Assembly (NCBI GenBank): GCA_964473485.1
Contig: CAYYPH010000001.1
Span: forward strand, 477 to 64,476
Direction: 5' to 3'
Length of the DNA: 64,000 nt
From: an uncultured Prolixibacteraceae bacterium
Lineage (GTDB): Bacteria; Bacteroidota; Bacteroidia; Bacteroidales; FEN-979
The notes beneath the pieces were generated by a model. It worked only from the letters and a program-made list of their open reading frames with translations. It did not search any database and had not been told where the DNA came from. The position numbers were made by a program, and so were the translations under genes. Shown here piece after piece: positions 1-17,700 of the stretch. Positions within the stretch are counted from its first letter, which is position 1. Each line of letters opens with the position of its first letter.

Positions 1-68
1 TTTAACAAAGAAATCAGAAATTTTATAGTTGAAAAATTATACTCATTACTGCTTTCTTTGGCTGATAA

Positions 69-842
69 TTGGACCAGGGCTTCCAGGAAGGATGGACGCC
101 TAAGGGCAAAGCTGCCTTCACACCGGTTGAGATCATGCAGCGCCGGCATAAGATCGATCTTTCGTTTTATCCCGATGAAATTGTGGAAACCTGGCTGGGG
201 TTCCTGGCTGATGAATCCACCGACCGCAAAGTATGGCCGGTCATCCGGTACATCATCGAGCAGCTGATCCTTCCCAAGGTTCTGGATAACCGTGAACTCA
301 AGCTGATCGGTACCGGTGATTATGCAGCGCCGGTTGACGGCACCGCCCAGGCTGTCGGACTGTCGATGGACGGGTTTTGCACCATCCTCCGTGACAAACA
401 TACGGCTGGCACCTCCAGTATCAATTTCATTGACCTGGAAGTGCTAACCAAGGAGAATATCTTCGACCAGATTGAGCATTTCGGCAGAAGTGTCGATGAG
501 CTCTACATCAATCTTTCGATGAATGTCTTCCTTTCCCGCAAATGATACGCCGCTTACCATCGCAAGCGCCGCTACCTGCACGGGAAGGACACCAACTACA
601 CCGGCATGAAAGATGTGATCGAGGGGACCAACCTGACCCTGGTTCCTCTGCCCTCCATGACCGGTGAGAACATTATGTTCACAACCCCGAAGGAAAAGTT
701 TATCCGGCTGATCAACCGCAACAATTGCGCCTCGAACATTACGGTCGAGAGCATCGACCGCCAGATCAAGGTTTTCGCCGACTGGTGCGAGTCCGTCGGC
801 TTCGGTATCGAAGAAGCAGTATTTGCCAGCGTTCCGGTTTAA
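69..842 (+). pseudogene. Phage capsid-like structural gene remnant split by a single in-frame TGA
   Basis: ORFs 69..545 and 606..842 share a frame. Codons 546..605 have no stop, so one TGA (543..545) interrupts a 258-codon frame. The 5' end has only TTG 69 or ATG 135, preceded by AT-rich 1..68. The resemblance to P2-family major capsid C-terminal halves is from memory only. Confidence 0.4.
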
Positions 843-862
843 CCCAAAAAATCTGAAAGAAA

Positions 863-1525
863 ATGAGCATACCACTGTTTGACCTTTTCAAACCCACCGT
901 GCGGAATGCCGGTGGCGGCGGCGGGATAAAATCCGAGATCATCCTGATCATGGAGAGTGATATCGACTGGTCTGCATTCCCTGACCGGGATGTTGACGGA
1001 ATTACCATCACCACTGATATCCCGCTTGTGACCGGCAAGTTCATGCATAGTTTTTATATGACCCAGGGTACCATCAAGCCATCCCAGAAGAAGCTCAAAG
1101 GCTCCAACCAGGACTGTGGTGGTTACGAGATCGGGGTGGAAGGTTTCTATCCCGGCATTGAAAAAGCTGTGCAGAAATGGATCGCCAACTTCGGCATCGA
1201 CTTCAGGGGGATCGTCATCATCCAGAACTGTGCTTCGGCCAAGCGTTATCTGATCGGTGAACCCTGTAACCTGGTTCACCTGGAAACCCTTGAAACGACC
1301 TGGGGAGAAGAGATCGACAAGGACAAGGGGCACAAATTTGGTTTCTTGTGCAAGCAGGGATCGCCGATGGCCTTCTATGTAGTCGCTCTGTCATGGATCC
1401 CAATGCAACCGGCGGATAACAAAGAAGCTCTTGTAGAGTGTTTTCGTAAACGTGAGGTTAAAGCCTGCCGGAGAAATTCGGCGGGCTTTTGTATTTTGAT
1501 CTATTGGTTTTGTAATTGGTTGTAA
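863..1525 (+). CDS. Hypothetical phage-like (structural?) protein
   Basis: 220-aa ORF 21 nt after the capsid-like frame, with the same roughly 50% GC composition. No recognisable catalytic motif. A strong terminator hairpin lies in its last 65 nt. Confidence 0.45.
   Translation: MSIPLFDLFKPTVRNAGGGGGIKSEIILIMESDIDWSAFPDRDVDGITITTDIPLVTGKFMHSFYMTQGTIKPSQKKLKGSNQDCGGYEIGVEGFYPGIEKAVQKWIANFGIDFRGIVIIQNCASAKRYLIGEPCNLVHLETLETTWGEEIDKDKGHKFGFLCKQGSPMAFYVVALSWIPMQPADNKEALVECFRKREVKACRRNSAGFCILIYWFCNWL
1461..1498 (+). terminator. Rho-independent terminator
   Basis: aagcctgccg (1461..1470), loop gagaaatt, cggcgggctt (1479..1488). This gives a 10-bp stem with one G-U pair, followed by ttttgtatttt. 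Confidence 0.6.
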
Positions 1526-1610
1526 TTATTTGCTAATATTGTCACAATAAAAGCGGTAAATAACATCTCTATCTTCTTTATCTGTAGTTTATTCAAAGCA
1601 TGCAATTTAC

Positions 1611-2210
1611 ATGAACATAGAGCAATTCAAAGAAAGACTTATTAGTGAAGACCTAGATAGCATGCTTAATAGTATTTTATTAAGTCCAGATGCCGAACAT
1701 GTCGATCATAGTCAACAAGAGCATATAAAAAATAAATTGGCAACGAAATACAATGTTCCAATAGAACAAATAAATGTAATTGTCGTAGGTTCTGCTAAAC
1801 TTGGATTTTCCATCACAGAAAAAATACTTTTTGATGGCAGGACTTTACCTAGGTACCGGAAATTCAGCTTTTTTTCTGATATTGATTTGGCTATAATAAG
1901 TCCACCAATATTTGATAAAATATGGAATGAATTGACTAATTTTTCTCATCGTCAAGCTTATTTTCCTTGGACCTCAAGAAAACTTGGTGATTATTTGATA
2001 TGTGGTTGGTTGCGTCCTGATCATTTTCCAACTGGCACAAGTCTTCGCTATTGTGATGATTGGTGGGATATTTTTAGGGATTTAACAGCCAAAAGATTTT
2101 TTGGTAGGAGAAAAGTAAGAGGGGCGCTTTTTTATAACTTTGACCAATTAAAGAAATATCAAGCTCGATCTTATAAAGAATGCCTAGATATTGAAACAAG
2201 TAAAATATGA
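1611..2210 (+). CDS. Small Pol-beta-superfamily nucleotidyltransferase (199 aa)
   Basis: VVGSAKLGF...FFSDIDLAII fits the hG[GS]...D-x-D NTase signature, but with an unusually long 26-aa spacer. ATG start. The stop overlaps the next gene's start (ATGA at 2207..2210). Low GC. Confidence 0.55.
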   Translation: MNIEQFKERLISEDLDSMLNSILLSPDAEHVDHSQQEHIKNKLATKYNVPIEQINVIVVGSAKLGFSITEKILFDGRTLPRYRKFSFFSDIDLAIISPPIFDKIWNELTNFSHRQAYFPWTSRKLGDYLICGWLRPDHFPTGTSLRYCDDWWDIFRDLTAKRFFGRRKVRGALFYNFDQLKKYQARSYKECLDIETSKI

Positions 2211-3256
2211 AAACAGCCTCAACGAATAAAAAGATAAGAGAAATTATAACTTCAGTAAAAGAAGGCAAAATTATTCCTCGCCCCGAATTCCAAAGAAGGC
2301 TAATTTGGACTCGGGAGGACAAAAACAATTTCATAGATACAATAATCAGAGGCTACCCGTTTCCCGAAATATATCTAGCTGACGGCGATATCGATTTGGA
2401 TACTGGGGCTGGCTCCCAATTATTAGTTGATGGGCTACAAAGAGTCAATACGATATTTCAATATTTTACCGGAGATCCCGATTTAAAATTAACGACAGTA
2501 TCAAGTTACAACGATTTGGAACCGGACGAAAAGGGTAAATTCTTACAATATGATATTGCTATTAGAGATTTAGGATCAATATCAAAGGATGAAATTGTTG
2601 AGGTCTTTAGAAGGCTCAATGCCACAAAGTATTCATTAAATGACATTGAAATAAGTAATGCTGTATATGCAGGTGAATTGAAGAAGTTTGCTGATGAGTT
2701 TTCAAAACTTGATTTTTTTGAAAACAATAAGGTATTCAATGCAGCCGACTATAAGCGAATGGGAGACCTCAAATATTGCTTATCGATTATCTCAACTATG
2801 TTAATCGGGTACCATAATAGAGATGATGTTTTCGAGGAATTGCTTAAGAAGTATAATGACGATTTTAATTTAAAAACTGATATTTCTGAAAGAATTGATA
2901 AAGTCATCGATTTTATTATTGAATGTGGATTTCCAACCCAGTCAAGGTTATGGAAGAAAGCTGATTTATTCACAGTTTTTATTGAGATTGACACAGCATT
3001 AAATATAAAAAACGAAAAATTGCAACCAGGAATCGTTGTTGAATCAATTCAAACATTTTTTGATGGAATTGGAAATCAAATTGTTGAATCGTCATTAACT
3101 CACGCAACATATTACAAATCTGCCCTTCAAGCATCAAATGATAAATCAAATAGGTTGAAGCGAGGATTGATAATCGGAGAATTATTACTTGGGAAATCTA
3201 TTAAAGATATTGATGCAATTTTAATTTCAGAAGGAATTGAGCCTGAGGTGCAATAA
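2207..3256 (+). CDS. DUF262 (ParB-like, GmrSD N-terminal type) domain protein lacking DUF1524
   Basis: IPRPEFQRRLIWTREDKNNFIDTIIRGYPFPEIYLA...LVDGLQRVNTI is the canonical DUF262 signature. The helical C-terminal 230 aa has no (D/E)HxxP...N...N..K His-Me motif. Confidence 0.75.
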   Translation: MKTASTNKKIREIITSVKEGKIIPRPEFQRRLIWTREDKNNFIDTIIRGYPFPEIYLADGDIDLDTGAGSQLLVDGLQRVNTIFQYFTGDPDLKLTTVSSYNDLEPDEKGKFLQYDIAIRDLGSISKDEIVEVFRRLNATKYSLNDIEISNAVYAGELKKFADEFSKLDFFENNKVFNAADYKRMGDLKYCLSIISTMLIGYHNRDDVFEELLKKYNDDFNLKTDISERIDKVIDFIIECGFPTQSRLWKKADLFTVFIEIDTALNIKNEKLQPGIVVESIQTFFDGIGNQIVESSLTHATYYKSALQASNDKSNRLKRGLIIGELLLGKSIKDIDAILISEGIEPEVQ

Positions 3257-3302
3257 ATAACCTGTTCTTTCTCCCCTGCAATTGCAGCCCTACTTTCGCT
3301 GC

Positions 3303-3953
3303 ATGGATCACGAAATCTTCTCCTGGCTCAATTCTCAGCAGGATTATTCTTCAGGACTTCAATTATTTGACCGATACGGCAAAAACTTCAACCTTGCCCG
3401 TATCTTGCGTGTCGGGGGAGCAACCGGAAGCAACCGGAAAACCCTTGCCTATGAGTTGGGCAAGCTTGTCCAGTACCTGCGTGATGTAACACAAATACCT
3501 GCAATTGCAGCATTACCTGACAAACACCAAGAAAACGAATACCTCCCGGGGATTACCCGCATCGGGGATTTGAAATCAGAGCAGAAGATGCTCTACAAGA
3601 TGCTGGATAATCTCCATGCCGTGCTTGAATTCAGGCCGGTTCAGGAACGGAAAAAGATCGCTTTTCATATCCTTGACCTGGATGATCAGCTCAAGGAACT
3701 GAACGATAGGACTGCTCATTATGAGAAACATGGCGTGATTCCTGTATTGCCTGTCACGGATGAAAAAAAGAAAATCTCCGAGCTCAACGCAGTTGAGCTA
3801 ATCCAGTGGCAGAATAACGTCCGAACCTACGTCGCCAGGTACAAAAGACTGGTAGCCGGTTCTAAAACTCCCAAGGCTCTTTCCCGTAATCAGCAGCTCC
3901 TTTTGCAGTACCAGCAGGAACTGGAAGAAATCACCAAACGACTTCAAGGATGA
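3303..3953 (+). CDS. Hypothetical protein (phage/mobile-element context)
   Basis: ORF 3282..3953 with the first ATG at 3303. GC returns to about 50%. Its stop overlaps the next ATG (ATGA at 3950). Confidence 0.45.
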   Translation: MDHEIFSWLNSQQDYSSGLQLFDRYGKNFNLARILRVGGATGSNRKTLAYELGKLVQYLRDVTQIPAIAALPDKHQENEYLPGITRIGDLKSEQKMLYKMLDNLHAVLEFRPVQERKKIAFHILDLDDQLKELNDRTAHYEKHGVIPVLPVTDEKKKISELNAVELIQWQNNVRTYVARYKRLVAGSKTPKALSRNQQLLLQYQQELEEITKRLQG

Positions 3954-4171
3954 GCTTGTTTTCGACAGACGACCTGCAAAAGAAGAGGGTCAACAGATCG
4001 AAATCCGGATCTGTCGCATCTGAGGGTAAAAAATTGCTGGCCATTGGCAAGGCAAACCAGAAGCTTCAGGAAGTCTTTGGCAAGGTTGTCCAGGGTCAAT
4101 CCGTGCATTATGCCTCCCTAGGGGACTGGTCCACCCATGACCTTCTTTTCTTTTTATTGGATCAAACGTAA
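3950..4171 (+). pseudogene. Truncated hypothetical gene (N-terminal 73 codons only)
   Basis: Translationally coupled to the previous ORF. It ends abruptly just before the IS-like fragment, and its composition matches the phage-like block. Confidence 0.3.
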
Positions 4172-4234
4172 GCCTACGGCCACGAGCATCTTTTCTGGCT
4201 AACCAACTGTACGCAAATTGCGTTCAAAAAAGCC

Positions 4235-4437
4235 ATGACCATTCAGGAGAGAAACAGCAAGATGGCGGCCATCGTAAAGAACTGGGTTGAAAGCGGGCTC
4301 ACCCAGGTTGAATTTGCCCGGAACCATAATACTAAACTGGCCACATTGCGATATTGGATTGCCAAAAACAGGAAGGCATCTGAACACCATCCTTTATTCA
4401 GATCAACGGCCCGGTACCCTCGGGCATCCACGCTCCT
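4235..4437 (+). mobile_element. IS66-family Orf1/TnpA-like HTH fragment (decayed)
   Basis: MAAIVKNWVESGLTQVEFARNHNTKLATLRYWIAKNRK is a typical IS66 accessory-protein HTH. Sense continues only after a frame change near 4390 (SFIQINGPVPSGIH in the neighbouring frame). No transposase body follows. Confidence 0.45.
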
Positions 4438-4848
4438 TTGCCCAATATCGATGAGAATTTCAAGAACCTTCAATATCTTGGTTTTGAATTTAATGGCCAA
4501 AATATTTACATTAGACCGTCAAGTTTGTCCAGATATTTCAGAAAAATGAAAGCGGGAATCTTTAAGACTGTATCAATGGCTTATAGTCCTAATTCAAAAT
4601 CGCATAATATTTTTAAACAAAGGCTTTTCAGTAAATATTCTCATTTTGGGAGAAGAAATTTTATTTCCTATGCGAAGAACGCAGCGAGGAAGTATTATAA
4701 AAACTCATTGGGTGAAATAAAAGAAGGGATGAACTCCCCCAGCATAAGCAGGCAAATATCCGCACACATGAGAATATTGACTCAAGAACTTGAAAAGACA
4801 AGTGCGCAGCGTGCAAAAACCAAAAGTGTCACCAAGTTGAAAAACTGA
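4438..4848 (+). pseudogene. Reverse transcriptase C-terminal (thumb-region) remnant
   Basis: NLQYLGFEFNGQNIYIRPSSLSRYFRKMK matches the conserved YLGF block that follows the RT palm in Abi/DRT/retron-type RTs. No RT motifs 1-5 lie upstream. Non-ATG start and low GC. Confidence 0.5.
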
Positions 4849-4895
4849 ACTGATGCTTCTGATAAATGAGTTAGCCAGGTTAAAAAGTAGTACAG

Positions 4896-6989
4896 CTAAA
4901 TTTGTATTATCTCCGCCCTCGTCCCCGTTCCTGTAATTTCAACCTTCTGCATTGCCCTGGTAATAGCAACATAAATGAGCGCCCGCTCCGTAAGAAGATG
5001 TTCCTCTTGGTGATATAGCTCGGATTGATTGAATGATTTGGGTAAAAATGGAGCTGTACGGTAGTTTACATCAGCCAGGATAACAATCTTAAATTCCAGC
5101 TCTTTAAGACTATGAAAGGTCGAAAGGTTAATCCCTCCCGGTGATCCGCTCTGGGAGGTAAGGTCGAAATAGGGGAGGGTGCATTGATGGAGAGCGGATT
5201 TTATCTCCCGGAGTGAGTCCTTGAGCCGGGTTGCAACAGCGATATCACTATATGAGAGCCCAAGGTTGACGTTTTCTTTGATGACTTTGATTATGTATGC
5301 AAGTTCTTCTGCTTTGGTAGTGAACAGGTGATATTTTGGTTTTTCTCCATGAAACAGTGAAAGGTACCCATCCATCTTTTCAGCCTCACCTTCAAAGTTG
5401 TCGTAGGAATAATCCCTGACAGTGCTAATTGCCAATCGTTTAATTTCCTCTGTGGTTCTGTAATTAATTCGCAGTCTTTTGCTCCTTGTACCGCGGATAT
5501 TGATACCAGCCGATGAAAAATTGATCTTCCGCCGGAAAATCCTTTGATAAGGGTCACCCACCAGGAACATGTCATCGCTCTTTTCTTCTACCAGCGAACG
5601 GATAAAGCGCAACTCAACATTGGAAAAATCCTGTATTTCATCAACAATTATATGGGAAAATGGCTTTGACTCTTGCGTTTGATAATAAGTTGAAAGATTA
5701 TTGAAGAGTTCGGCCCTGTCCAGGAAATTTTCTTTTCTCTTTTTAACAATATAAGCCTCAATGGCTTTCCAAACTTCAATGCGTTGTTTACGGGTAATGG
5801 CCTTGCCCCGACCGATGCGGGATTGTTTTAAATACGCATCCAACGCCAGGATGCCATTGTAAAGGATTACTTCCTGGTATTCTGAATGTAGAAATGAAGC
5901 ATCAAACGGACAAAGCGTTTGCTCAAGCACTTCATCCCACAATTCAAGACTCGATTTGGAATTCGGGAAATCAAGAAATCGTGATCCTTGTGAGATTTTG
6001 CCTGTCGCTTTAGCCAAATCCCGTGCGAGCATATCTATATTTACAAGGCGGTAGAGGTTTGAGGGAATTCCCATTCCTGCAATAAGTTTTCCCAGGTTTG
6101 CAGTCAGCGCGGTGGTATAGGTGGCAAAAAGAATGGGTTGAGAGGCCGGGATTGTTTTTTCAGTCGCAAGGAACTTCAAACGATGCAAGGCTGCTACAGT
6201 CTTTCCGGTACCACCCCCCCCGGTAACTTTAACAGGTCCCCTGAAAAGCCCTTCCACAAGTTTACGTTGCGAAGGATGCAGAAATACCTGCCACTTTTTC
6301 AGGTCTCCATGTATCAATTCTTCCAGCAGCTTATCTTCTGCCACCACGAAACTTCGTTGGTTATTGATGCTTTGAACCTGCTCTTCATAGGTTGCAGATT
6401 TCACTTTTCCTTCTTCAATTTCAAAGATCAGGTTGTCGATGTTTGCTCCGTCGGCCAGGTAAAAAAGATTTTCAAAGGCATCCTCCGGCAGGTTTTTCTC
6501 AATATTTTCAAGGTCATCCAGGCTTGTGACATTTCTGACCAAACTCAGGGAAACAGGTGGCACTCCAATCGCCATCAATTGTTCATCTGATAGCTGACTA
6601 TATATATCAGACTCCCTGAAAGCTGGTATTGCCGACGGTGAAGGCATGGGTGAAACAGGAGGTGCAGTAAAAATCTGCACTACCTGCGTGTTGTCATTCC
6701 AGGTGATCATTTTATTTTGTGCCCAATCCATGGCCTCATCATGGGTATCGACCCAAAGCAGGAAATAGTCGTCCCCGGTTTCAGGAACCTTTATAATTGC
6801 CCGGTACTTATCATCAATGCGGGCTGTTCTTAGCGATTGATCGATAAAGGTCTTAATGGGTTCAAGATGGATTGCCTGGGAGCGTGAATTTTCCCGGAAT
6901 TTCCGCTGGAAGTCCAACACTTTATTCTGAATCGATTTTGGCAGGTCGATGAATTTTTCGAAAAATTTATCGTACAAAAACAATCTCAT
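4896..6989 (-). CDS. UvrD/Rep-type SF1 DNA helicase with about 100-aa N-terminal accessory domain
   Basis: Motif I VTGGGGTGKT, II IIVDEIQDF, III LVGDPYQRIF, IV LRINYRTTEEI, V TFHSLKELEFKIVIL, VI LIYVAITRA. The start overlaps the stop of the upstream gene by 4 nt. Confidence 0.85.
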   Translation of the reverse strand: MRLFLYDKFFEKFIDLPKSIQNKVLDFQRKFRENSRSQAIHLEPIKTFIDQSLRTARIDDKYRAIIKVPETGDDYFLLWVDTHDEAMDWAQNKMITWNDNTQVVQIFTAPPVSPMPSPSAIPAFRESDIYSQLSDEQLMAIGVPPVSLSLVRNVTSLDDLENIEKNLPEDAFENLFYLADGANIDNLIFEIEEGKVKSATYEEQVQSINNQRSFVVAEDKLLEELIHGDLKKWQVFLHPSQRKLVEGLFRGPVKVTGGGGTGKTVAALHRLKFLATEKTIPASQPILFATYTTALTANLGKLIAGMGIPSNLYRLVNIDMLARDLAKATGKISQGSRFLDFPNSKSSLELWDEVLEQTLCPFDASFLHSEYQEVILYNGILALDAYLKQSRIGRGKAITRKQRIEVWKAIEAYIVKKRKENFLDRAELFNNLSTYYQTQESKPFSHIIVDEIQDFSNVELRFIRSLVEEKSDDMFLVGDPYQRIFRRKINFSSAGINIRGTRSKRLRINYRTTEEIKRLAISTVRDYSYDNFEGEAEKMDGYLSLFHGEKPKYHLFTTKAEELAYIIKVIKENVNLGLSYSDIAVATRLKDSLREIKSALHQCTLPYFDLTSQSGSPGGINLSTFHSLKELEFKIVILADVNYRTAPFLPKSFNQSELYHQEEHLLTERALIYVAITRAMQKVEITGTGTRAEIIQI

Positions 6990-9900
6990 AAGCCAATCAT
7001 GTTAAGTGTAAAATTTACCGGATCAACGCACTTAAATCCTGCATTCTCAAATGCTTTTTTGTCAAGGTCAGAAATGGGGCTGATAACAATCCTTGCATTG
7101 GTGAACCCGATGGCCGCTTCCGCTACAACTCCATTTTCGTCCTCCAGAAAATAGCTTCCTTCGTGATTGAATTGAACATCGTTTGCAATGAGCAGCTTTA
7201 CGATCGGATGCAATTCGGGATCAAAATAGTCAAATACCTCCCCATCTTCATTTTCTTTTTCTTCGCCTGGCTTCTTTCCTTCACTTGTTGCAGTAAACAA
7301 TATCCTGCAAGATTCCTGCACCAGATTGTAAACCCGCCATAAATGTTGCCATTCTTCCTTATCAAGTCCGTTCTCAGGAATTTCCCTGATCAGGATCGTT
7401 GATTTGAAATTCAGGTCTCGCAGCCTGATGAGTAATCGTGCATCATACAAACTGGTTTCCGAGATGGCTTGAGAAATCATGCAAAAGTCTCCTTTTGCCT
7501 TTTCAGAAACTTCATGGTTGGGATCAATCGGTATCTTAAGGGCAAGGATATCTTCAGCCTCTTCATTTGAAAACGATGGTCTGGCAAGGATTTCCTGGAA
7601 TAACGCAAAAAACAGAGCAATTTTGTACCTGTTTTGATCTGTTTCTAAAGGATGTGTTAGTTGCCAGAGTAATCGCCCCATTGAATTTCCGGTTTCAATC
7701 AGATCACTGTTATGCTTGATCCAATGAGGGGTTCGCCCAAGCGCCTGAATCGTATTCCTGAATCTTGAACGATCAAGTGATAGCGTATCTTTCTCTTCCT
7801 TGTCAAATAGCTCCAGGTCATCCCAGGTAAGGGTCCAGGTTAATTTATCTGCTGATTCAACGATGGCCATGCGACGTTGTAAATCAGTCAGGAATCGCTG
7901 ATTCTCTTTCGATGCATGGTAGGTATATCCATCGAGATATACTGCAATTCGTTTTACCGATTCTGCGATTTCGGGATCCTCCACCGTGAATCCATTGTGC
8001 TGTATGCCGGTACATGAAATATAGAAATCCGATACCGTCTGGTACCTCACCCCCTGAGCGGTGCCGAGAGCTACCTGGGGCCGTATCATGTAGTTGAATT
8101 TGTAAGCTTCATTTACTACCGTAAGCATGTATGTAAGTATTCCGTCATCCACAAACTCTTCAAATTGCCATCCGTACGAACTCATCTTCGCCGATGTATT
8201 CCGTAAACTTCGGATAAACCGCTCTTCGAGCTCACTCTCCTCTATCTTTCCTGTACCGGAGAGTGTACTTAATCCATGGCTTAAAACTTCCCATGCTTCA
8301 GCATTGCTGACCAGTTTTTCAAAGAATTTCTCTGCCCGGCTGCGGCTCAACGCTTCTCTTAAATACTGGTTGGAATATGAAAAAATACACCGGTAACATC
8401 CATCCATCCCCTGATGCTGGCATGAACACTCCTTGATTGCCTTATAGGCGAAACGGATAAGTTGTGTAAATTCGGCCGGGTCGAATAGTTTTCCCAAATA
8501 TCCCGTCCCACCGGGTATTTTATCATAAAGTATCAGAAACCTGTCGAATCGGTTGTTTTGCGGGTTAAATTCCGAATAGCTTATCATCCTGATGTGTTCC
8601 GGGTTCCCCTGGTAGTACTTTTTCAAACCGAGTTCAAGCCCGGCTTTGAACATATTGATGGTGGCATCGTTGTCAAACTCCTGTACCGGAAGCAGCACTT
8701 TCAATACTTCCGTTTTTATACTTCGGAAGAGAAAAACCTCCTCGAACACTTCGTCCGGTTGATCATTATACTCATGATCCTTATGTTTGCAGTAACCGTA
8801 ATGAAACTTTACATCCTTACTCTTTGGTGAAGAGGTGGATTTTCCGCAATACCGGCAGGTGACAAAACCTGAGGCGGGAATCTCTTCAAGCTGGTTGATG
8901 GAGAGTTTCCGCGCATTGTATGCATCGAGCCGGCCCAGGTTAACTTCAGTGATTTCAACGGACTTAACATATTCAATCCCAAAGGGAATGTTTTTCATAC
9001 CCCAGGCTCCCTGGAACGTGTTCCTGTCAAAATTAAGATGCGTCGAAAGAACATACCGGCTGCTATCACGATCTTCGTTGCTGTCGTCGAGAATTGACTT
9101 ATCGCGGATATTAACTGACTTTACCGCATTCAGTTTAACAAATTTGTGTTCGTTTGACACGGAGGACCAGGACGAGTGCCCGCATTTTGGGCAGGTATTC
9201 TCTGAAACCATCGGTTTGTCGGCAAGGTGATCGCAATGGGAACAAAACCGTTTCGTCAGAAGGATCGAAGGATCATGCCAGTCATACGTATTAAGTCCTG
9301 ATATCGTTAATTTGTTGCCCTGGGAGTAGAAGAAGTTATCGGGCGCCAGTTCCCGGATTGCCACTTCGGCGGAGCGGACTATTTCAACCTGTTCGTCAGC
9401 AGGGGGGACGGCGCTTCCTTTTGCCTGGTATCCTTTCACCCATGCATTTAAAGTAACCCCCGTTTCGGGGAACGCATAGTTCGGAAGCAGTCCCGTATTT
9501 GTAAGATGCTCGAGTACTGACCTACGGTCGATTAACCTTTTAAGTCCCCACAATGCCTTCTTCTCCGCTTCCAGTTCCTTTCTTTCATCATCATTTGCCC
9601 CAAGGTGTTTCTCCTTGATGATTTTATCGATCTCCTTTCTCTTTAAATCAATGGTTCTGTACTCATCCTTCAATTTTTCAAAAACCCTCCGCAATCTGAA
9701 ATAAAAGCTCTCATCCCTAAGTTGATTTTCGATGCTATCCAGCACCTCCGGTTGAACTTCATGGATAAAGATCGTCCTGAATCTTTGAATTAAGGCGACT
9801 TCATGGGCCTTGATAAAACTGATGATTCTGTTGATGAGAAATCCGGATGAACTGATATCCGTGTTATAGATACGGAGTGCGATCAGCCGGCCGGGGATGG

Positions 9901-12900
9901 AATTTTCCTTTGGATTGGCCGATGCCCAGGAATCGAGACAAAAGGCAAAGAAATGGCGCAGCAGAATCTCCTTTGCTTCAAGGTAACACCCGGGGGTTGA
10001 GATCTCGCCCTCCATCATCTCCTTTGGCTCCTGGTAATAGAACAAATCATGTGCTTTGTTCTGTACGAAATTGGTGATGAGCGCTGAACCGGAAGATCTT
10101 CCCGCCCGGCCGATTCGCTGCATGAAATTGGAAGCGAGCGGTGGGACAGAATTATTAATGGCGGTATTCAGGGTTCCGATGTCGATCCCCATTTCAAGGG
10201 TCGATGTAGCTACAAGTGCATTGAGCGAGTTATACCGGGGCCGCATCTTAAAGTCGTTTTCCATTTTTTCACGATCACCCCGGTTCAGTATGCCTGTATG
10301 CTCTGTTGCATATATCCGTGGCGCCCTTGCCCGGTTATAAATCAGTTGATAGTAATTCAACTCCCTGACTTCATTGGTAGTATATTCTCCCGTACATCGA
10401 TAATTCAGACATTTTGCCCCTTTTGTAACGGTATCGTTAAACCCGACGGATAGTTTTGATGAACATTCGGAGCAAATCAGGTGTTTAACCTTGTTTTGTA
10501 CAAGGACAGAGTCTGGTCTCAGGCAGTAATTATGTTCAGCTCCTTCAGCCGCTTCGTTCAATATTCCTGTGTCACAAAGCAGTTCAAACAATTTCACGAA
10601 GAAATCATTCTGTATAGGATGGTAAGCAGGAGCATTAACAAATGATTTCGTAAAATAGGAATGAAACCAGTTGGCTGTCTGGGTGTTCGTGGTGTCAAGT
10701 AATCCCCGCAGATGAACATTTGATGTTACAAGTTTCGGGAACCTCGATTTGGGATGATACAGTTTGTTCAGGAAGTGTCTGTTATCACGCATCCAGTTCA
10801 GGTCCAACAGTTTCAGACCCTCATTGCGGTATTTTTCCAGGTAGGGATGATCAATGCCTCCCCTGATCCTGATTCGGTGTAAAATGCCGGCTAAGAAAGA
10901 GTGAAATCCATCTTCATCGATCATGCTGAGGTTGTTGTCATCCAGCCACGGTTTAATCTCCTGGAAAATCGCTCTGATTTTTTCCTCCGGGAAAAGAACG
11001 GCGGAGGCTCCGCTCTTTTCCAGTGTACGTCCAATACTCGCATTGAAACCAAATTCAGAAGAAATCTCCCAGGTAATCCTGTGGTCAAATTCATGGCAAA
11101 AATCCCGGGAGAATTTATGCGTTACCGGATCCCTGAAGTCATGGCGCAAATTTGTTTTACCCCGGTAATCCGAAGGGAAGAAACGATAATAATAGGCCTC
11201 TTCATCATCTTTCCCGGCTTCTCCGGTAAACCCCTTCCAGAAACGGATGAACTCCGTCTGAAGCGCTTCAATCGAAACCGTCCGGTTCAAAACATTCAAT
11301 ACCTTTTGAAGTGAGGAACGAAAGGTGAACCGATAATTCCTTGCTTCAATAAACCCGGCCTGGTGAGCTGCATCCTGCACACTATTGGTAAAGGCCAGTA
11401 CTTTCCGGTACTTTTCATCTCTGCTGTCCAGATCCGACGCCAAAATCTGGCTTACGGTAATGGATGAAAGTGTAGCTACGCGGGTTCCGATGATACTGAC
11501 CGTGTTTTCGGTATTGCATTCGGGGCATACATGGCGTGCTTTGCTGTTATGCAGTTTGCGCACTGCGATGATCTTCATCCTGTTCTTCCCATCGGTGTCA
11601 TGAATGGACAAATCCACGGGATCGAGGTAACGGTTGTTCAATAAGTCGGTCGGTTCATATTCGTCCACCGGCTTATGTTCATCCATAGCCGTATTGACAA
11701 AATAGATGTTTTTATGGTTGCTGAAGAAATGGTCATATATGGAAGGCAGATCAGGTTCAAAACTGTTACGGTTGTCATTTTTTAACCCCAGCCATCCGCT
11801 TGCACCACATTCGCGGCAAAACCAGGGAGGCAACGCCTTTGTTTCATCTTTATCTGATATTTTATCCTTCCATGTAAAGGAGGGCTCATTGCTGACCTCA
11901 CGCAACAGGCCACTGAGTTCTCTGATCCAAAGTTGTATCTGCAGGTAAAGGAAGGGAAATTTTTTACTGCCTGGCATTTTTGCCTCCGCGATGAGGGCCA
12001 GCAGGGAGTTCAATACCTCTTCCCGGGGTTTGAGGTCAGATTCAGACCCTATCTCCGGTAGCTTTCTGAACTCACCGTTTCTGTCGGCCAGTTTTTCAAG
12101 CAATTCCTGGATGGATATGATCCCGGCCGATGTCAGGTGAAGAATATCCCTGGTAATCTTCAGCTTTTTAAGTTCATTCCCGAGAATTACTTCATCAACA
12201 GTTTCCGGTATCTGCCATAATTTTTTCTGGCGCCGGATGTATTCCGTGTATTTCTCGTTTGAACCCAACCGGCTCTCGGTTATTCCCGACAAACGCGGAA
12301 TAAATGTTTCGAGTTCCTGTCCGGGTACGGCGAAAAAATCCTCAACCGTGATACGATTCTCAGTAACAATTGAATCCAGGTCGAATGATTCGCCAAACAC
12401 ACCCTGTGCATAACCGGTAAGCAGTTGTTGGGCTCCTTCGCCAGCGCCCATGGTAGCCGAGGTTCCCACCGGGCACAGATACCCCTCCGGAACATTCAAT
12501 TTGAGCTTCAACCGGCGGATGAGGTTGGCCACATCAGTACCCTGCGCTCCGTCGTAAGTATGGAGTTCATCAAGGACCAGAAACTTAAGTAAAGAAGGGT
12601 CGTTTAGATTATGCGTCCACAAATTGTGAAAATCGCTTCGCATCAGGCCATAGTCAAGCATCTTGAAATTGGTCAGCAGGATGTCCGGTGGGCTGTCCAC
12701 AATGGCATTCCGGTTTTCGATGATGTTCGCCGGACCCATATCTTTGGGATACTTCGCTTTATTCTTTCCCTCCCCGATTAACAGTCCGGCTGATATGTTA
12801 CCTTTTAGCCTTTCATCCACCCAGATGGTTTCCGCAAGCCGCTTCGCCTGATCGGTGGCAAGGGCATTCATAGGATAAAGGATGATCACCTTGATCCCCG

Positions 12901-13276
12901 GTTGGTGCTTGTGAAGGAAACAATAATCAAGGATGGGAAAAAGGAATGCCTCCGTTTTTCCCGATGAGGTGCCGGTAGTGATCAGCGTTGGCTGTGGATC
13001 ATGCTCATTTCGGGTGGTAAGCCTCCTGAATGCCTTGATCTGGTGATCGTAAGGAGGAAATCCGGGTTTTATTTCAAGGGGGATCTCTTCGCCATCTGCC
13101 TGGATCACAAAGGGCAATTTTAGTGATATATAGGGGCCTTTGAACAATCCATCCGTGTCATCGTTGATAAATCGCTGAAACGCCATATTCATCTCCCGCT
13201 CCTTGAAGTCAAATGTGGCTTTCAGATACTCGATGATGGAGTATTTTATTTCGTAGGCTTGCTGGAGGGGGAGCAT
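6986..13276 (-). CDS. 2096-aa DEAD/DEAH helicase fused to DUF1998 (MrfA-type Zn-ribbon) plus about 450-aa C-terminal extension; DrmA+DrmB-like or DruE-like
   Basis: Walker A TGTSSGKT (12953..12976), DELH (12560..12571), LVATSTLEMGIDIG and QRIGRAGR. Cys pairs CSHC..CPKC and CRYC. The DUF1998 end signature is PGGTGYL...CSCQHQGMDGCYRC (8387..8428). The C-terminal extension contains SDFY...IAVYLDGYTYHAS...RR, which is DUF559/Vsr-like. Confidence 0.8.
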   Translation of the reverse strand: MLPLQQAYEIKYSIIEYLKATFDFKEREMNMAFQRFINDDTDGLFKGPYISLKLPFVIQADGEEIPLEIKPGFPPYDHQIKAFRRLTTRNEHDPQPTLITTGTSSGKTEAFLFPILDYCFLHKHQPGIKVIILYPMNALATDQAKRLAETIWVDERLKGNISAGLLIGEGKNKAKYPKDMGPANIIENRNAIVDSPPDILLTNFKMLDYGLMRSDFHNLWTHNLNDPSLLKFLVLDELHTYDGAQGTDVANLIRRLKLKLNVPEGYLCPVGTSATMGAGEGAQQLLTGYAQGVFGESFDLDSIVTENRITVEDFFAVPGQELETFIPRLSGITESRLGSNEKYTEYIRRQKKLWQIPETVDEVILGNELKKLKITRDILHLTSAGIISIQELLEKLADRNGEFRKLPEIGSESDLKPREEVLNSLLALIAEAKMPGSKKFPFLYLQIQLWIRELSGLLREVSNEPSFTWKDKISDKDETKALPPWFCRECGASGWLGLKNDNRNSFEPDLPSIYDHFFSNHKNIYFVNTAMDEHKPVDEYEPTDLLNNRYLDPVDLSIHDTDGKNRMKIIAVRKLHNSKARHVCPECNTENTVSIIGTRVATLSSITVSQILASDLDSRDEKYRKVLAFTNSVQDAAHQAGFIEARNYRFTFRSSLQKVLNVLNRTVSIEALQTEFIRFWKGFTGEAGKDDEEAYYYRFFPSDYRGKTNLRHDFRDPVTHKFSRDFCHEFDHRITWEISSEFGFNASIGRTLEKSGASAVLFPEEKIRAIFQEIKPWLDDNNLSMIDEDGFHSFLAGILHRIRIRGGIDHPYLEKYRNEGLKLLDLNWMRDNRHFLNKLYHPKSRFPKLVTSNVHLRGLLDTTNTQTANWFHSYFTKSFVNAPAYHPIQNDFFVKLFELLCDTGILNEAAEGAEHNYCLRPDSVLVQNKVKHLICSECSSKLSVGFNDTVTKGAKCLNYRCTGEYTTNEVRELNYYQLIYNRARAPRIYATEHTGILNRGDREKMENDFKMRPRYNSLNALVATSTLEMGIDIGTLNTAINNSVPPLASNFMQRIGRAGRSSGSALITNFVQNKAHDLFYYQEPKEMMEGEISTPGCYLEAKEILLRHFFAFCLDSWASANPKENSIPGRLIALRIYNTDISSSGFLINRIISFIKAHEVALIQRFRTIFIHEVQPEVLDSIENQLRDESFYFRLRRVFEKLKDEYRTIDLKRKEIDKIIKEKHLGANDDERKELEAEKKALWGLKRLIDRRSVLEHLTNTGLLPNYAFPETGVTLNAWVKGYQAKGSAVPPADEQVEIVRSAEVAIRELAPDNFFYSQGNKLTISGLNTYDWHDPSILLTKRFCSHCDHLADKPMVSENTCPKCGHSSWSSVSNEHKFVKLNAVKSVNIRDKSILDDSNEDRDSSRYVLSTHLNFDRNTFQGAWGMKNIPFGIEYVKSVEITEVNLGRLDAYNARKLSINQLEEIPASGFVTCRYCGKSTSSPKSKDVKFHYGYCKHKDHEYNDQPDEVFEEVFLFRSIKTEVLKVLLPVQEFDNDATINMFKAGLELGLKKYYQGNPEHIRMISYSEFNPQNNRFDRFLILYDKIPGGTGYLGKLFDPAEFTQLIRFAYKAIKECSCQHQGMDGCYRCIFSYSNQYLREALSRSRAEKFFEKLVSNAEAWEVLSHGLSTLSGTGKIEESELEERFIRSLRNTSAKMSSYGWQFEEFVDDGILTYMLTVVNEAYKFNYMIRPQVALGTAQGVRYQTVSDFYISCTGIQHNGFTVEDPEIAESVKRIAVYLDGYTYHASKENQRFLTDLQRRMAIVESADKLTWTLTWDDLELFDKEEKDTLSLDRSRFRNTIQALGRTPHWIKHNSDLIETGNSMGRLLWQLTHPLETDQNRYKIALFFALFQEILARPSFSNEEAEDILALKIPIDPNHEVSEKAKGDFCMISQAISETSLYDARLLIRLRDLNFKSTILIREIPENGLDKEEWQHLWRVYNLVQESCRILFTATSEGKKPGEEKENEDGEVFDYFDPELHPIVKLLIANDVQFNHEGSYFLEDENGVVAEAAIGFTNARIVISPISDLDKKAFENAGFKCVDPVNFTLNMIGL

Positions 13277-13330: not shown

Positions 13331-14695
13331 TTATCCTTCATGAACCCCATCAGTAACCTTCCAGCTTCCACCCTTAGCCCCTCCCATTCGCTCGAGTTTT
13401 TGTTTTGCTTTCAGCCGGTTGATGCTTCGCTCAATGGATCGCGTGCTAACTCCCAGCGCAATTGCCAGTTCGGGAATGGTAATTTCATGATTCCTGGAAA
13501 TAAGTTCCAGTATTTTTTCGGTGGTTTTCCCCGACGCTTTCCCCGACGCTTTCCCCGACGTTTTCCCCGACGTTTTCCCCGACGATATTTCCGTTTCCTT
13601 TTTAAACTCAATCACGAAACCGGATAAGTCATAACTGAAGACTGGTGGTGGTAATTGTGCCAATGAGCACTCCCTGAGAATTTTCAGGGTGCCACGGCCC
13701 CACGACTCGATTAATCCGGCACGAAAGAAGGTTGCGGCAATATCCGGATTAAATGGAACCGATGGATGCTTGTGCAACAAATGTTCAACCGTCCAGTTGT
13801 CGGGTAGCTGGCCTTCGTTCCAGAAAATTATACGATCGTCGTAAACACTGATCTGGATGGGATTTCCACTGCTGTAATCCTTGTGGGCCAATGAATTCAA
13901 CAACGCTTCGCGTAAAGCAGCTTCCGGGAATGGATACGATTCAACCCTGGTTATGCCATCATAGGAAATGATTGCTTTCAGATATTTTGTGAGCAGCAAA
14001 TCCATCGTTTTGTCAACCTGTCCGAACAGATGCCCGTGGATTTCGTCCTGGTAAAGCAGTTCATCGTCTGTTCTGAAAAATCCGATTTTGACATATGCGC
14101 CGGTTACAAATTTTTCCGGATCGGGGTGAAACAACAGAATGGCAGCCCTCTTCAGGTAATTTCCTTCGGTTAAATGCAGTTTCTCTATCAATATTCCATT
14201 GTCATCCTGCAACATTTCCGGGCTTAACCTCTTGCTTCGGGAAGCCTTTTGACGGAAGTTGATAAACGCATCTTCACTCAGGTTTGGCACAGAAACATTG
14301 GGAACTGGAACGCTATCCCAGCGCCTGCCCTGTTTTTGCAATAAAAACTTATCGAGGGCAGCTCCCTTTAATTCAAGCTTTGTACTCCCGCTGCGGTAAT
14401 GGTATTGCCCCTTGTAGTTTACCGGGAATGGCTGCGGCTCAACCACAATCTCCAGGTACTCGCGGCCATTTTTCGATTGAAGGTTAACATCAACAACAAT
14501 TCCCAGAATATCCCTCACTTTATTCGGAATGGTTTCGAGTAACTTTCGCGGCTCTGACAAACCGGTTACCATGCCCTTGTCGTTGATGCCGATATAAAGG
14601 GTACCCCCGTTTGCATTGGCAAAACCGCAAATCCACTTTATGTATTCATCCCTCCAGGATTCCTTCCATTCAACATGCTGGTTTTCGGCGCTCAT
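13331..14695 (-). CDS. AlbA_2 (Schlafen-like) + HATPase_c_4 + C-terminal wHTH protein
   Basis: N-terminal ENQHVEWKESWRDEYIKWICGFANANGGTLYIGINDKG is the AlbA_2 signature. The C-terminal ILELISRNHEITIPELAIALGVSTRSIERSINRLK is a wHTH. An (SGKT/A)5 linker sits between them. Confidence 0.7.
   Translation of the reverse strand: MSAENQHVEWKESWRDEYIKWICGFANANGGTLYIGINDKGMVTGLSEPRKLLETIPNKVRDILGIVVDVNLQSKNGREYLEIVVEPQPFPVNYKGQYHYRSGSTKLELKGAALDKFLLQKQGRRWDSVPVPNVSVPNLSEDAFINFRQKASRSKRLSPEMLQDDNGILIEKLHLTEGNYLKRAAILLFHPDPEKFVTGAYVKIGFFRTDDELLYQDEIHGHLFGQVDKTMDLLLTKYLKAIISYDGITRVESYPFPEAALREALLNSLAHKDYSSGNPIQISVYDDRIIFWNEGQLPDNWTVEHLLHKHPSVPFNPDIAATFFRAGLIESWGRGTLKILRECSLAQLPPPVFSYDLSGFVIEFKKETEISSGKTSGKTSGKASGKASGKTTEKILELISRNHEITIPELAIALGVSTRSIERSINRLKAKQKLERMGGAKGGSWKVTDGVHEG
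13529..13584. repeat. 12-bp tandem repeat (ccccgacgcttt / ccccgacgtttt), 4.7 copies, in-frame
   Basis: Read directly from the sequence. It encodes SGKTSGKTSGKASGKASGKT in the minus-strand AlbA_2 gene. Confidence 0.9.
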
Positions 14696-14734
14696 GGGTC
14701 AGTGTATCGTAATGATCTGCAAATGATTCATTGT

Positions 14735-17700
14735 TTATGTGTTATCAAAGACTTTCTCAAAATACCCCCACGCCACCCTGTAATCCTCCACCCGGTCGCA
14801 TTTGTCAAACGGGGCATGGTAAGTTACCTTCCTGCCATAATAAAGCTCGCTTTTGGTGATGGTGTGCTCATAGGTTTTCCCGGCGGGAAGGTTTCGAATC
14901 TGCTCCCACACCAGGCGGTCAACGCCAACCCCATTGAGCCCTTTGCTGCAGGTGAACACAATATTCCCGTTGGTATCATACCAGGTGTCGTCTTCATTCT
15001 GCTGAAGGACCGGGAACTGCACGTTGTAAATCAATATCAGCTCTTCCAGGGTTAATCCCAATGCCATGGCGGTGATCACATCTATCTCCACCAATGCCTG
15101 CCGCCGCTCGAACCAGTTGCGCAGGGGGGTGCCCCATTGCCACTGCGGTGTCAGCGTATCAAAGGGTTTGAGCCGGGGATCGGGCTTGCTCCATTGATCC
15201 CGGTTGAACTCCGACTGGTACATCTCCTCCCAGAGCGGCGCGTAATATTTGTTGAGACAGTTGAGGAGAAGGGTGCGGGAGTATATGTGGTTTTTGAATT
15301 TGATATCGATACCCAGTGGAAATTGTTTGATAATATTATCTGTCAAATTGGAAGCTCCAATTGATTTCAGGAAGAAATCAAGAATTATTGAAGAGGTTAT
15401 CCCGCAAAGCTCAATAACTAAGGCTACATTTTCGAAAACGATAGAATTTATACTATTCAGGTGAAATACTCTGGGAGGCAGAATTACAGGTTGTAATGTC
15501 CTTTCACCAGTAATACTTAGCATACGTGACCAACTCGTTTTAAATACTTCAACCCCACTGCAAGGGTTTCTCTTCTTAAATACCGTGAACCTTTCGGTAA
15601 AATCTTCAATTGATTGTAAAACCTTAAAACTTGTATTTGGAAAAAAATCTTCAATTATTTCAGTAATATCAACTGCATCATAATCGAGATTATTTTTTGC
15701 AGTGGGTCGAATGCTTTTGTAAATTGGGTTACAAACAAAGAAGTTAGGACCACTGTAAACTACAACATTTTCTTTTGGAGAGAAAAACTGAGGCTGTTCA
15801 ATGATATTTTTCTCTCTGATTTCTTTAGCTTGGTCTAAGCCAATCAAAATCTCAAATATGTATTCTGATACTCTCTTCTCAACATTTGCCAGCTTATCTA
15901 ATGCACTTAAAATATCATTTGAGTGAATGCTTACGAGTTTAGTCCCAGAATAATTATCTGAGTTTTCAAAAACCTTTGCAAGTAATTTTAGACTATTCTC
16001 ATTACAATGTAAGATTCTTTTTTTGTGTGGCTGTATATTCCAAGTCGACTTTCCGGTTGCCTTATCCTTTTCTTTAATTCCGCCACAAATACCAGTGCCA
16101 TCATGAATAAATGAACCACTTATTGTGAAAGGATGAAATAAATTATTAATGGAAGAGAAAGAAATTTCCCGTTTATTCCAAGCATAGATGTTTATACCAT
16201 ATGTATTGTGATGGTCTATTTCGGCAAATAGTAGTAACTCATTTTTAAATTGAAAATGATATAAAAGTCTTTTAAATATATTTTGTCGTGCATTTTTTGC
16301 ATTAGGGTCATCGTATATGCTTTCAGGGTGCACTAACCCGATGAGTCCTGTTTTATTTGTAATCCCAAAACTGTTTTCCAGTACATTTTTATAGAGGTTG
16401 TTTTTTTGTCCAATCATAATTGGATAATTCTGACAGCTTCCAATAAAACTTTGAATGCATTCAGCGTTTACTTGCTCATCAATTACTTCTGTTTTAAATT
16501 CATCAAATTTTCTAATAATCTGTTCGCAAAGACTAAACGCATCATCAGTATTAGTTTTACGGATTAATACTTCAGGATAAAGTGTGGACACTAATCCTTT
16601 AACATCAAACAGTATTTCAACCCATGGAGGATTCCCCGCAATCAGATCAAACCCGCCCCGTTCCCAGAAAACATCAAGAAATTCCAGTTGGGGATGAAAG
16701 AAGCGGTATTTTAGGGTTAACTCCTGGACAATTGGGATTCGTTGATTCTGGTCGAAAAAATCACGTTTAACGGAGTAGCGAACAAAGGCTTCATTCACGA
16801 AATTAACGTTATCCACTTCAGTTGCCTCTGCTTCGGGATATTCTGTTACTGTTTCAGGGGCAAGGGTACGATCATCCGTTGGTGCAATTTCGTTCACCCT
16901 GGGTTCTTCCTTTTCCGGTGTTAGCGTAAGCTGAATGGCTACCGGCGCAAACATGTTCAGCTGCACCCCTTTATCATCCCCAAATTCATCCGGTTTGCGG
17001 GAAGTCCGGAGATCAGCGGCTGCTTTGGCCAGGTCAAGGTCGAGAATGTCGGCGATATCCTGCCAGTATTGTTGCCGGGTAGGTAATTCGCCTGCCTCTC
17101 GCATGTCCCAGAACCAAAGGGCGCACCAGTAGTCCATCACCATCTTCAGTTTGAAGTAGGGTGCGTTGTGGCGGTTGCGGTAATCGGCAAGCGCCTCCTT
17201 TTCATGGTAGGTTTTCAGCGCGGTCTGAATCCCTTCCGTTGGCACCCCGAAAACTGACAGGCGGGTATGGGTCTGTTGGTTAATGTGTTGCTGGAACCGG
17301 TAATACTCTTTTATCAACCCGTCAATGGTGGCCGAGATGCGTTGCAGTATTTTGAGTTCCGAAAGCAATATTGGTTTTACCCAATCGCTTTTCCATTCCC
17401 TCACCTTTTTGGCTGCCTCAGGGTATTCGTTTTTCAGCATCGGAATTCCGGCAGAGGCCAGCATATTTTTATCGGGCAACAGAAAATGATAAATCTCCTT
17501 CTCTTTCCGGAGAACGCCTTTTTTACCGATTTCAAGTTTTACAGGCGCCGTTTCCCACCATGCTTTAATGGGTTGCCGCCTGAGTGGTTTTCCTGATGAA
17601 TCCAACTCTGTAAGAAACGATGCGGCAGGATAGGCCTTCAGCCAGGCGCCCACCACCGCGTTGCCCACCCCCAGCCGGTTGCTGAAGAAGGGGGTCTCCA

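Follow-up and report, generated by a model that had tools for sequence, protein, structure and literature searches.

Two overlapping genes, here called A and B, were found to form a real, widespread and uncharacterised two-gene module that matches no named system. They lie near the left end of a 64,000-nucleotide stretch of DNA from an uncultured Prolixibacteraceae bacterium (contig CAYYPH010000001.1 of assembly GCA_964473485.1), the whole of which is called the window. Gene A (1611..2210, forward strand, 199 aa), located by open reading frame (ORF) scan, very probably encodes a Pol-beta-superfamily nucleotidyltransferase (NTase) resembling the minimal nucleotidyltransferases (MNTs) and belongs to no curated family. 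Gene B (2207..3256, forward strand, 349 aa) encodes an NsnA-like protein with a ParB-DUF262 nucleoside triphosphatase (NTPase) domain, a helical ParBDB-like domain and no nuclease domain. The stop codon of A and the start codon of B overlap in an ATGA at 2207..2210 of the forward strand, confirming the coupled two-gene cassette of the original prediction, which had been made from the letters of the window. The pair was matched by no PADLOC system and makes a good candidate for a novel immune or toxin-antitoxin (TA) module of bacteria, with a putative function and a putative defence phenotype.

The pairing was assessed from both sides. A scan seeded with A over one genome per species (185,579 species) gave 178 relatives, and 80 loci were kept. 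B was located immediately downstream in 78 of these 80 loci, and the remaining two contigs stop before B. In a B-seeded metagenome scan, A was directly upstream in all 45 loci with at least 600 nt of upstream sequence, and a partial A was present in five of five loci with partial upstream room. The A-B pairing is obligate in both directions; conservation as neighbours, put forward at the outset as a check on the pair, held in 78/78 and 45/45 testable loci. The junction is a 4-nt overlap in 63 of 102 complete pairs and lies between −23 and +14 nt in 100 of them. A and B co-diverge, their pairwise distances being correlated (Pearson 0.76), with A evolving faster (mean pairwise distance 0.63 among the 102 A sequences) than B (0.50). 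Catalytic motifs are intact in both genes and both are under strong purifying selection. No third conserved gene was found across the 78 loci, the flank clusters representing synteny within Ca. Poribacteria.

Some loci depart from this arrangement. Insertions of 1.4–3 kb separate or interrupt A and B in four of them (L025, L053, L071 and L072); these are probably insertion sequence elements and the copies are likely inactivated. On a 241.7-kb NCBI contig, A and B are joined in a single polypeptide of 536 aa (P0331), which forms a singleton cluster.

The proteins encoded by A and B

No match was obtained for gene A in Pfam, NCBIfam or PADLOC, the 5,027 PADLOC models including those of candidate systems, and its sole match in PHROGs was a family of unknown function (3.6e-5). 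The possibility that A belongs to a housekeeping family was not borne out, as it matches no such family. A single-sequence search of the PDB returned designed repeat proteins alone, which are spurious, and a profile search of the PDB gave nothing relevant. The family itself comprised 195 matches in an indexed search, each of about 200 aa and each annotated 'hypothetical', and 875 clusters at 50% identity in an exhaustive profile search (E <= 1e-3).

Residue invariance in A and B was scored over 102 homologues. The motifs VVGSAKLGF and SDIDLAI, quoted in the original prediction, are present in the translation of A. G60-S61 (1788..1793, forward strand), an hG[GS] NTase motif following strand 1, was invariant in 102/102 sequences, as were both aspartates of D90-I91-D92 (1878..1886, forward strand), the DxD metal-binding motif on strand 2. 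D137 (2019..2021, forward strand), within the invariant GW-RPD-P, is a candidate third catalytic carboxylate with a putative position; in the model it follows a short strand (133-134) and it is itself invariant. The AlphaFold2 (AF2) model of A has a pLDDT of 94.7 and a pTM of 0.89. It suggests an NTase core with a helical region on either side, N- and C-terminal. VVGS (58-61) is placed straight after strand 55-59 and the DxD motif opens strand 91-96, with a helix after each, an arrangement which in the model corresponds to the NTase core topology.

Profile comparisons point the same way. As a reference set, 40 database proteins carrying PF18765 and PF01909 were retrieved with an HI0073-like seed; a motif hunt for genuine MNT genes in 1.3 Mb of sequence found none. 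Alignment of the A family with these 40 MNTs (hhalign, E 8.2e-5, probability 61%, 74 columns) paired VVGSAKLG of A with AFGSRVKG of the MNTs and SDIDxAV with SDLDLAI; between its GS and DxD motifs, A carries an insertion of 13 residues. PF01909 appeared below threshold in 9 of 43 A members (best E 0.026, under the gathering score) and SMODS in one of the 43 (E 0.096). Eleven of the 12 best PDB matches of the A model in Foldseek were Pol-beta NTases (CutA, GLD-2, TUT1, Pol lambda), all weak (E >= 0.17, TM <= 0.29), and nothing was found at E <= 1e-3 in the PDB or BFVD. Against the AbiEii protein of the window, used as a single sequence, the A profile showed no similarity (hhalign probability 0.2%). 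Of the families originally named for comparison, the MNTs are probably related to A, and AbiEii and SMODS are not detectably so. Motifs, model, profile-profile alignment and weak recurrent signals, none conclusive alone, together make it very probable that A is a Pol-beta-superfamily NTase, as first proposed, even with Pfam, NCBIfam and PADLOC silent. Its conserved motifs suggest that A is most likely an active minimal NTase. Pol-beta NTases move nucleoside monophosphates onto a hydroxyl group, which may belong to RNA, to DNA, to a protein or to a small molecule.

B matched the Pfam domain GmrSD_N (DUF262) over residues 11-154 (1.2e-17), and no match to the Pfam DUF1524/GmrSD_C models was found. 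Its best PADLOC match was NsnA (residues 5-224, 108 bits), followed by PD-T4-2_A (5.6e-19, 66 bits). In the A-B fusion P0331 the NsnA model covers positions 42-381 of 385, and B is therefore homologous to NsnA along its full length. By sequence, B is a full-length but distant relative of NsnA, the predicted sensor of the Menshen system. NsnA combines a ParB-DUF262 NTPase domain with a helical DNA-binding domain, 'ParBDB' (PMC12065111). DUF262 domains bind and hydrolyse nucleoside triphosphates (NTPs) and sense DNA or its modification to gate an output in GmrSD, BrxU and SspE; the same has been proposed for NsnA (PMC12065111, PMC10952713). The originally quoted motifs PEFQRRLIW and DGLQR are present in the translation. 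Following published motif definitions (PMC12065111, PMC12137116), F28-W34 (FQRRLIW; 2288..2308) is DUF262 motif I (QR...W), with F, Q, R and W invariant in 102/102 sequences, D75-R79 (DGLQR; 2429..2443) is a DGQQR-type NTP-binding/hydrolysis motif with D, G, Q78 and R79 invariant, and F134-N138 (FRRLN; 2606..2620) is the invariant FxxxN motif, all on the forward strand.

Residues 155-349 of B (2669..3253, forward strand) form an all-alpha, ParBDB-like C-terminal domain, in which the polar residues Y202, N217, R247, E260, Y302, R316 and R319 are near-invariant. In the AF2 model this part is all-alpha at a pLDDT of about 90, with no beta-beta-alpha-Me finger. The N-terminal half is modelled poorly (pLDDT < 50), probably owing to a shallow, close alignment. 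BrxU was the sole PDB sequence relative of B (E 0.068) and also gave the top TM-score (0.30), apart from which the fold search was uninformative. Since the motifs are invariant and the C-terminal half is all-alpha, B is probably an active, nuclease-free DUF262 NTPase whose helical domain is of a DNA-binding type, in line with the nuclease-less DUF262 protein originally described.

A resemblance to NsnA could also be left over from decay, in which case B would be an orphan NsnA- or GmrS-like gene of a former Menshen or GmrSD system, with an unrelated small gene as its neighbour and no function shared between the two. NsnA being the best PADLOC match of B fits this, as do further degraded systems in the island of the window, the Drt2 fragment at 4438..4848 being one example. 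It is highly improbable in the face of two-way co-occurrence in more than 120 independent loci from at least 13 phyla, the conserved overlap, co-divergence, intact catalytic motifs in both genes and strong purifying selection; moreover, NsnB and NsnC are never adjacent. A Menshen remnant was rejected on the strict two-way co-occurrence of A and B.

Spread and possible mode of action

The hosts of the module belong to at least 13 phyla. They include Bacteroidota, Acidobacteriota, Nitrospirota, Alpha-, Beta- and Gammaproteobacteria, Desulfobacterota, Chloroflexota, Planctomycetota, Cyanobacteriota, Actinomycetota, Verrucomicrobiota, Gemmatimonadota, Bacillota and Poribacteria. Among loci L001-L151, 85 had enough flank for a comparison of GC content, with host flanks of about 45% to 69% GC. 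The module was lower in GC than its flanks in 84 of these 85 (mean gap 10.7 points, Wilcoxon p 1.4e-15), so the GC dip belongs to the module rather than to the genome of the window. Recent transfer, occurring repeatedly, or else a constraint on composition may lie behind this strikingly uniform offset across phyla. The nearest relative of the pair in the window (83% and 91% identity) stands among unrelated genes (Schlafen/AlbA, RadC, Mrr), and in Cronobacter the pair is cargo of a ColE1/Rop plasmid of 6.2 kb. The module moves independently, as one unit.

The module is often found beside defence or restriction-modification (R-M) genes, a qualitative statement based on PADLOC and Pfam flank scans that list the 25 commonest families, without a genomic background. 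In Rufibacter the pair adjoins another TA pair. Of 35 non-redundant loci, 5 have a C5-cytosine methylase no more than two genes from the pair, and L084 has one as well; the endonucleases of these R-M neighbours are of three types (SmaI, NaeI and unknown). In a divergent subclade (L062, L066, L068, L069, L070, L076 and L044) the pair abuts C5-cytosine methylase R-M systems. L069, L076 and L044 have an unannotatable gene of about 400 aa at 3-200 nt past B, followed in L069 and L076 by a Dcm methylase.

These neighbours could mean that the pair is an accessory of DNA modification or R-M, with B a DndB/DpdB-like NTPase that loads or regulates a DNA-modifying enzyme and A nucleotidylating DNA ends, nicks or bases, the two cooperating with cytosine-methylation R-M or policing it. 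Besides the methylases of three endonuclease types, it is in favour of such a role that ParB-like proteins work with modification enzymes in Dnd and Dpd (PMC12839542) and that the lactococcal AbiR, which includes a ParB-like protein, requires a methylase (PMC13064643). It is nevertheless quite unlikely, as 30 of the 35 loci have no nearby methylase, none is adjacent to the window pair and no restriction partner is conserved. The association is limited to the divergent subclade and could be the result of clustering in defence islands.

The reading preferred here, at a probability of roughly 0.45, is that A-B is a self-contained, horizontally mobile conflict module, of an anti-phage or abortive-infection kind, in which B senses foreign DNA and licenses A as the sole output. 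B would act as an NTP-gated sensor of invading or differently modified DNA. Through translational coupling A and B are made in a fixed ratio, and B would license A, probably inside an A-B complex. The licensed A would be the only output enzyme, transferring nucleotides onto a macromolecular target. MenT and AbiEii are NTase toxins that block translation via tRNA nucleotidylation, and by analogy the likeliest target of A would be an RNA 3' end such as the tRNA acceptor stem. Modification of RNA 3' ends by A could then stop translation and phage growth. In this scheme, we infer that the two proteins interact physically, how sensing and action are divided between them, what A targets and that the module defends the cell.

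The order of the two genes can also be read in the opposite sense. In a type VII-like TA system, A would be an MntA-like antitoxin enzyme that nucleotidylates B, for instance by AMPylation of an invariant tyrosine, and so keeps it inactive. B would be a growth-arresting ParB/Srx-fold NTPase acting by NTP depletion, DNA nicking or DNA clamping, and would be released when infection or loss of the element abolishes the activity of A. The only detectable relatives of A are MntA-type minimal NTases. The operon is built as mntA-hepT operons are, with the NTase gene first, the partner second and a 4-nt overlap. Of the two, A is the faster-evolving, which is usual for the antitoxin of a TA pair, and B has five tyrosines that are at least 97% invariant (Y86, Y115, Y142, Y202 and Y302). 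Carriage on a small high-copy plasmid and the TA neighbour in Rufibacter are consistent with this as well. MNT-HEPN pairing and fusions have been described (PMC13000451), the fusions being a parallel to the A-B fusion, and Osa (cited in PMC12839542) is an example of a ParB/Srx protein with ATPase and DNase activity. However, B has no recognised toxin domain, characterised DUF262 domains are sensors or regulators and not effectors (PMC12065111, PMC10952713), and no autoregulatory DNA-binding domain is evident. A is also twice the size of MntA, and its extra helical regions suggest a macromolecular substrate-binding domain of its own. An antitoxin role for A is the main rival to the preferred reading, possible but rather unlikely.

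Several observations weigh against B as sensor and A as effector. B is unusually conserved, with 43 positions at least 97% invariant and a mean column identity of 67%; a slower-evolving, highly conserved B fits an effector or toxin better than a sensor engaged in an arms race, and speaks for the type VII-like reading. A resembles the MNT antitoxin family and not the MenT/AbiEii toxins, and it is near-neutral (median pI 7.9) rather than markedly basic, the charge analysis of the proteins giving no discrimination between mechanisms. The NTase signals of A are individually weak (Pfam under threshold, Foldseek E >= 0.17 with TM below 0.3, hhalign 61%). The A-B fusion, as a singleton, could stem from a frameshift. 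In the flank survey, counted without a genomic background, many neighbours are housekeeping genes. In Ca. Poribacteria, which account for 17 of the 80 loci (L037, L049-L075), the pair lies in conserved non-defence synteny, the neighbours in these sponge-associated bacteria being multi-copy TPR genes and a xylose-isomerase-like TIM-barrel gene.

Nothing computed separates the effector model from the type VII-like TA model. A further proposal, made here with low confidence, is an immune or addiction module of a new kind, free of nucleases, whose ParB-fold NTP switch and minimal NTase would act on each other. Either DNA-bound, NTP-loaded B would license A for the capping of RNA or DNA ends, or covalent nucleotidylation by A would set the state of B. 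The link by nucleotide signal or nucleotide modification that was originally suggested between the two proteins is conjectural.

The locus and the surrounding defence island

Over 1500..3300 the GC content is 0.29-0.39, against 0.50-0.53 to the left (150-1500) and 0.46-0.49 to the right (300-nt windows), in agreement with the low GC noted originally. The terminator placed before the cassette was also recovered: an intrinsic-terminator-like hairpin with T-tract is located at 1460..1499 of the forward strand, with a 13-bp stem and a 4-nt loop. The hairpin proper (1460..1489) has seven G-C pairs in its stem and is followed by TGTATTTTGA; sites like it are expected by chance at 1.4 per 2.2 kb. It marks the end of the upstream transcription unit and the left border of the low-GC cassette. 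A listed ORF, 863..1525, runs through this hairpin, which leaves the ORF, or its 3' end, uncertain.

The AT-rich leader of the cassette (1500..1610, forward strand) contains one weak sigma-70-like match at 1539..1566 (9/12). The count of sigma-70-like matches equals the shuffle expectation; as they are no commoner than in shuffled sequence, no promoter is claimed for the cassette. An Rfam scan of 1..5000 matched no family. As to insertion scars, neither flanking direct or inverted repeats nor a tRNA were found at the cassette. The small antisense ORFs within it are no more than would be expected by chance of AT-rich sequence.

The cassette had been described as a moron in a phage remnant. The product of the ORF at 863..1525 weakly matched phage proteins from Bacteroides and Flavobacterium, one annotated as holin (E 2e-9 with the Bacteroides phage protein), and two of the three flank genes tested had no phage match. 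Because similarity to phage is confined to this left-flank gene and is weak, the description is not the most apt one. No match to A was found in 50,697 phage genomes, and with two of three flank genes lacking phage similarity, a phage moron was rejected. Among 2.9 million viral contigs, A was present in only three, as a divergent copy with B directly downstream each time.

Instead, the A-B pair is situated at the edge of a defence island of about 30 kb. The downstream gene (3282..3953) had no PADLOC match. It is followed by a transposase-HTH fragment (4235..4549) and a C-terminal fragment of the defence reverse transcriptase Drt2 (4438..4848; PADLOC 3.3e-27, model positions 371-477 of 502); the region 4235..4848 looks like a DRT2 system destroyed by transposition. 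On the reverse strand, 4896..13276 encodes a UvrD-like helicase (697 aa) overlapping a 2096-aa DruE (PADLOC DruE3 3.3e-91), which is Druantia type III-like. Within 13331..22527, also on the reverse strand, a protein with Schlafen/AlbA_2, HATPase_c_4 and helix-turn-helix (HTH) domains is followed by a 1644-aa type IIG R-M enzyme, the gene of which is overlapped by that of a 953-aa SNF2 helicase (DrmD-like, 6e-97). The arrangement resembles DISARM or a helicase-assisted type IIG system.

The full-length GmrSD paralogue reported in the window is a GmrSD-like protein of 610 aa (22598..24430, reverse strand). Its motifs DGQQR (90), DIHHVFP (481) and NKTPISARTN (506) are real, the latter two having been quoted for the nuclease; of its domains Pfam detects the N-terminal GmrSD_N alone. 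It is 26% identical to B over 82 residues, and its best PADLOC matches are the candidates PDC-M55C and HEC-05. The region of 22-26 kb is GC-poor as well (0.38-0.39). An AbiEii/AbiEi type IV TA pair lies at 28008..29826 on the reverse strand (Pfam AbiEii 3.8e-6) and represents a second NTase-based module in the island, unrelated to A-B. A T9SS sorting domain is encoded at 30912..32864 and, like the nearest homologues, points to Bacteroidota as the host phylum.

Comparison with known systems

Bacterial immunity repeatedly uses DUF262/ParB sensors as its front end, in GmrSD, BrxU, SspE, Menshen, Dazbog and PD-T4-2. To our knowledge, the characterised or modelled cases all pass their signal to a nuclease. 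Here this front end is obligately tied to a small NTase and to nothing else, in at least 13 phyla. If the module defends cells, it would represent a new output chemistry for DUF262 sensors and minimal NTases would reach beyond HEPN partners; if the proposed mechanism is true, it would be the first ParB/DUF262 sensor tied directly to nucleotidyl transfer and not to a nuclease or an ATPase-nuclease relay. The module measures 1.65 kb, is found on an enterobacterial plasmid and has clear catalytic residues in both proteins.

Menshen is the nearest system on the side of B. NsnA and B share the ParB-DUF262 and helical ParBDB domains, the QR, DGxQR and FxxxN motifs and the lack of a DUF1524 nuclease. 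A Menshen operon from Vibrio phage L9-1 was used as a control and scored 360 bits for NsnA, 344 for NsnB and 93 for NsnC in PADLOC. The genuine NsnA thus reaches 360 bits against 108 for B, a distant similarity. Menshen has three genes and the module two, with an NTase gene upstream of B and overlapping it. Neither the ABC ATPase NsnB (AAA_15 / DUF3696) nor the effector NsnC (inPIN + nuclease) was found beside the pair, in the window or as a conserved gene in the 78 loci. Given the score of B on NsnA and the lack of NsnB and NsnC, the A-B module is not Menshen. In the control locus (L152, 437..5755; the phage is P2-like), a complete type II Menshen stands beside a cytosine methyltransferase and an integrase, and its NsnA carries an N-terminal extension. 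Escherichia phage vB_EcoM-689R6 (L153, 2468..4179) has an NsnA-like DUF262 gene (350 aa, PADLOC NsnA 8.5e-32) by an integrase, followed by a 216-aa gene without Pfam or PADLOC match, a gene order opposite to that of A-B. The latter is another uncharacterised pair of a DUF262 protein and a small partner.

PD-T4-2 also has two genes, encoding a nuclease-less DUF262 protein and one small enzymatic partner. Since HEPN and MNT are classic partner families, the MNT-like partner here mirrors the HEPN of PD-T4-2. The partner in PD-T4-2 is a HEPN protein (PF18735, PMC10952713), whereas in A-B it is an NTase encoded upstream of the DUF262 gene. No HEPN partner was found for B, as A has no HEPN, Pfam or PADLOC match and there is no other conserved partner. 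B is nearer to NsnA than to PD-T4-2_A. With GmrSD, BrxU and SspE, B has in common the N-terminal DUF262 NTPase and the helical domain that follows; lacking the DUF1524 His-Me nuclease, it cannot cut DNA as these proteins do. For Dazbog (DzbA/DzbB), no Dzb model was among the PADLOC matches of A or B at E <= 0.1.

On the side of A, the nearest detectable relatives are the MntA-type minimal NTases of HepT-MntA, with which the GS and DxD motifs align and which are likewise encoded first, overlapping the partner. There the partner is a HEPN RNase with an Rx4-6H motif, and that of A is a DUF262 protein. Unlike MntA, A is about 200 aa long, with an inter-motif insertion and extra helical regions, and never reaches the PF01909 threshold. 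In the two-gene conflict modules AbiE and MenAT the active component is a Pol-beta-fold NTase, as proposed for A. A is smaller than AbiEii and MenT, without detectable similarity to them, and its partner is not an AbiEi-type transcriptional antitoxin. From CBASS the module differs in that A has almost no SMODS signal and no PADLOC match, and that no effector gene is conserved beside the pair.

No NTase-DUF262 pair was found in the full-text literature, most subscription-journal papers being outside its scope, so that a prior description is possible. The 2013 HEPN survey lists ParB/DUF262-HEPN operons and none with an MNT. It had been stated originally that no named defence system was known to combine an NTase with a nuclease-less DUF262 protein; none was indeed found, with the correction that B is not an orphan fold but a homologue of NsnA (1.8e-31). 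The most fitting description of the A-B pair is that of a DUF1524-less DUF262 conflict system with a swapped partner, an MNT-like NTase standing in for the nuclease-bearing one.

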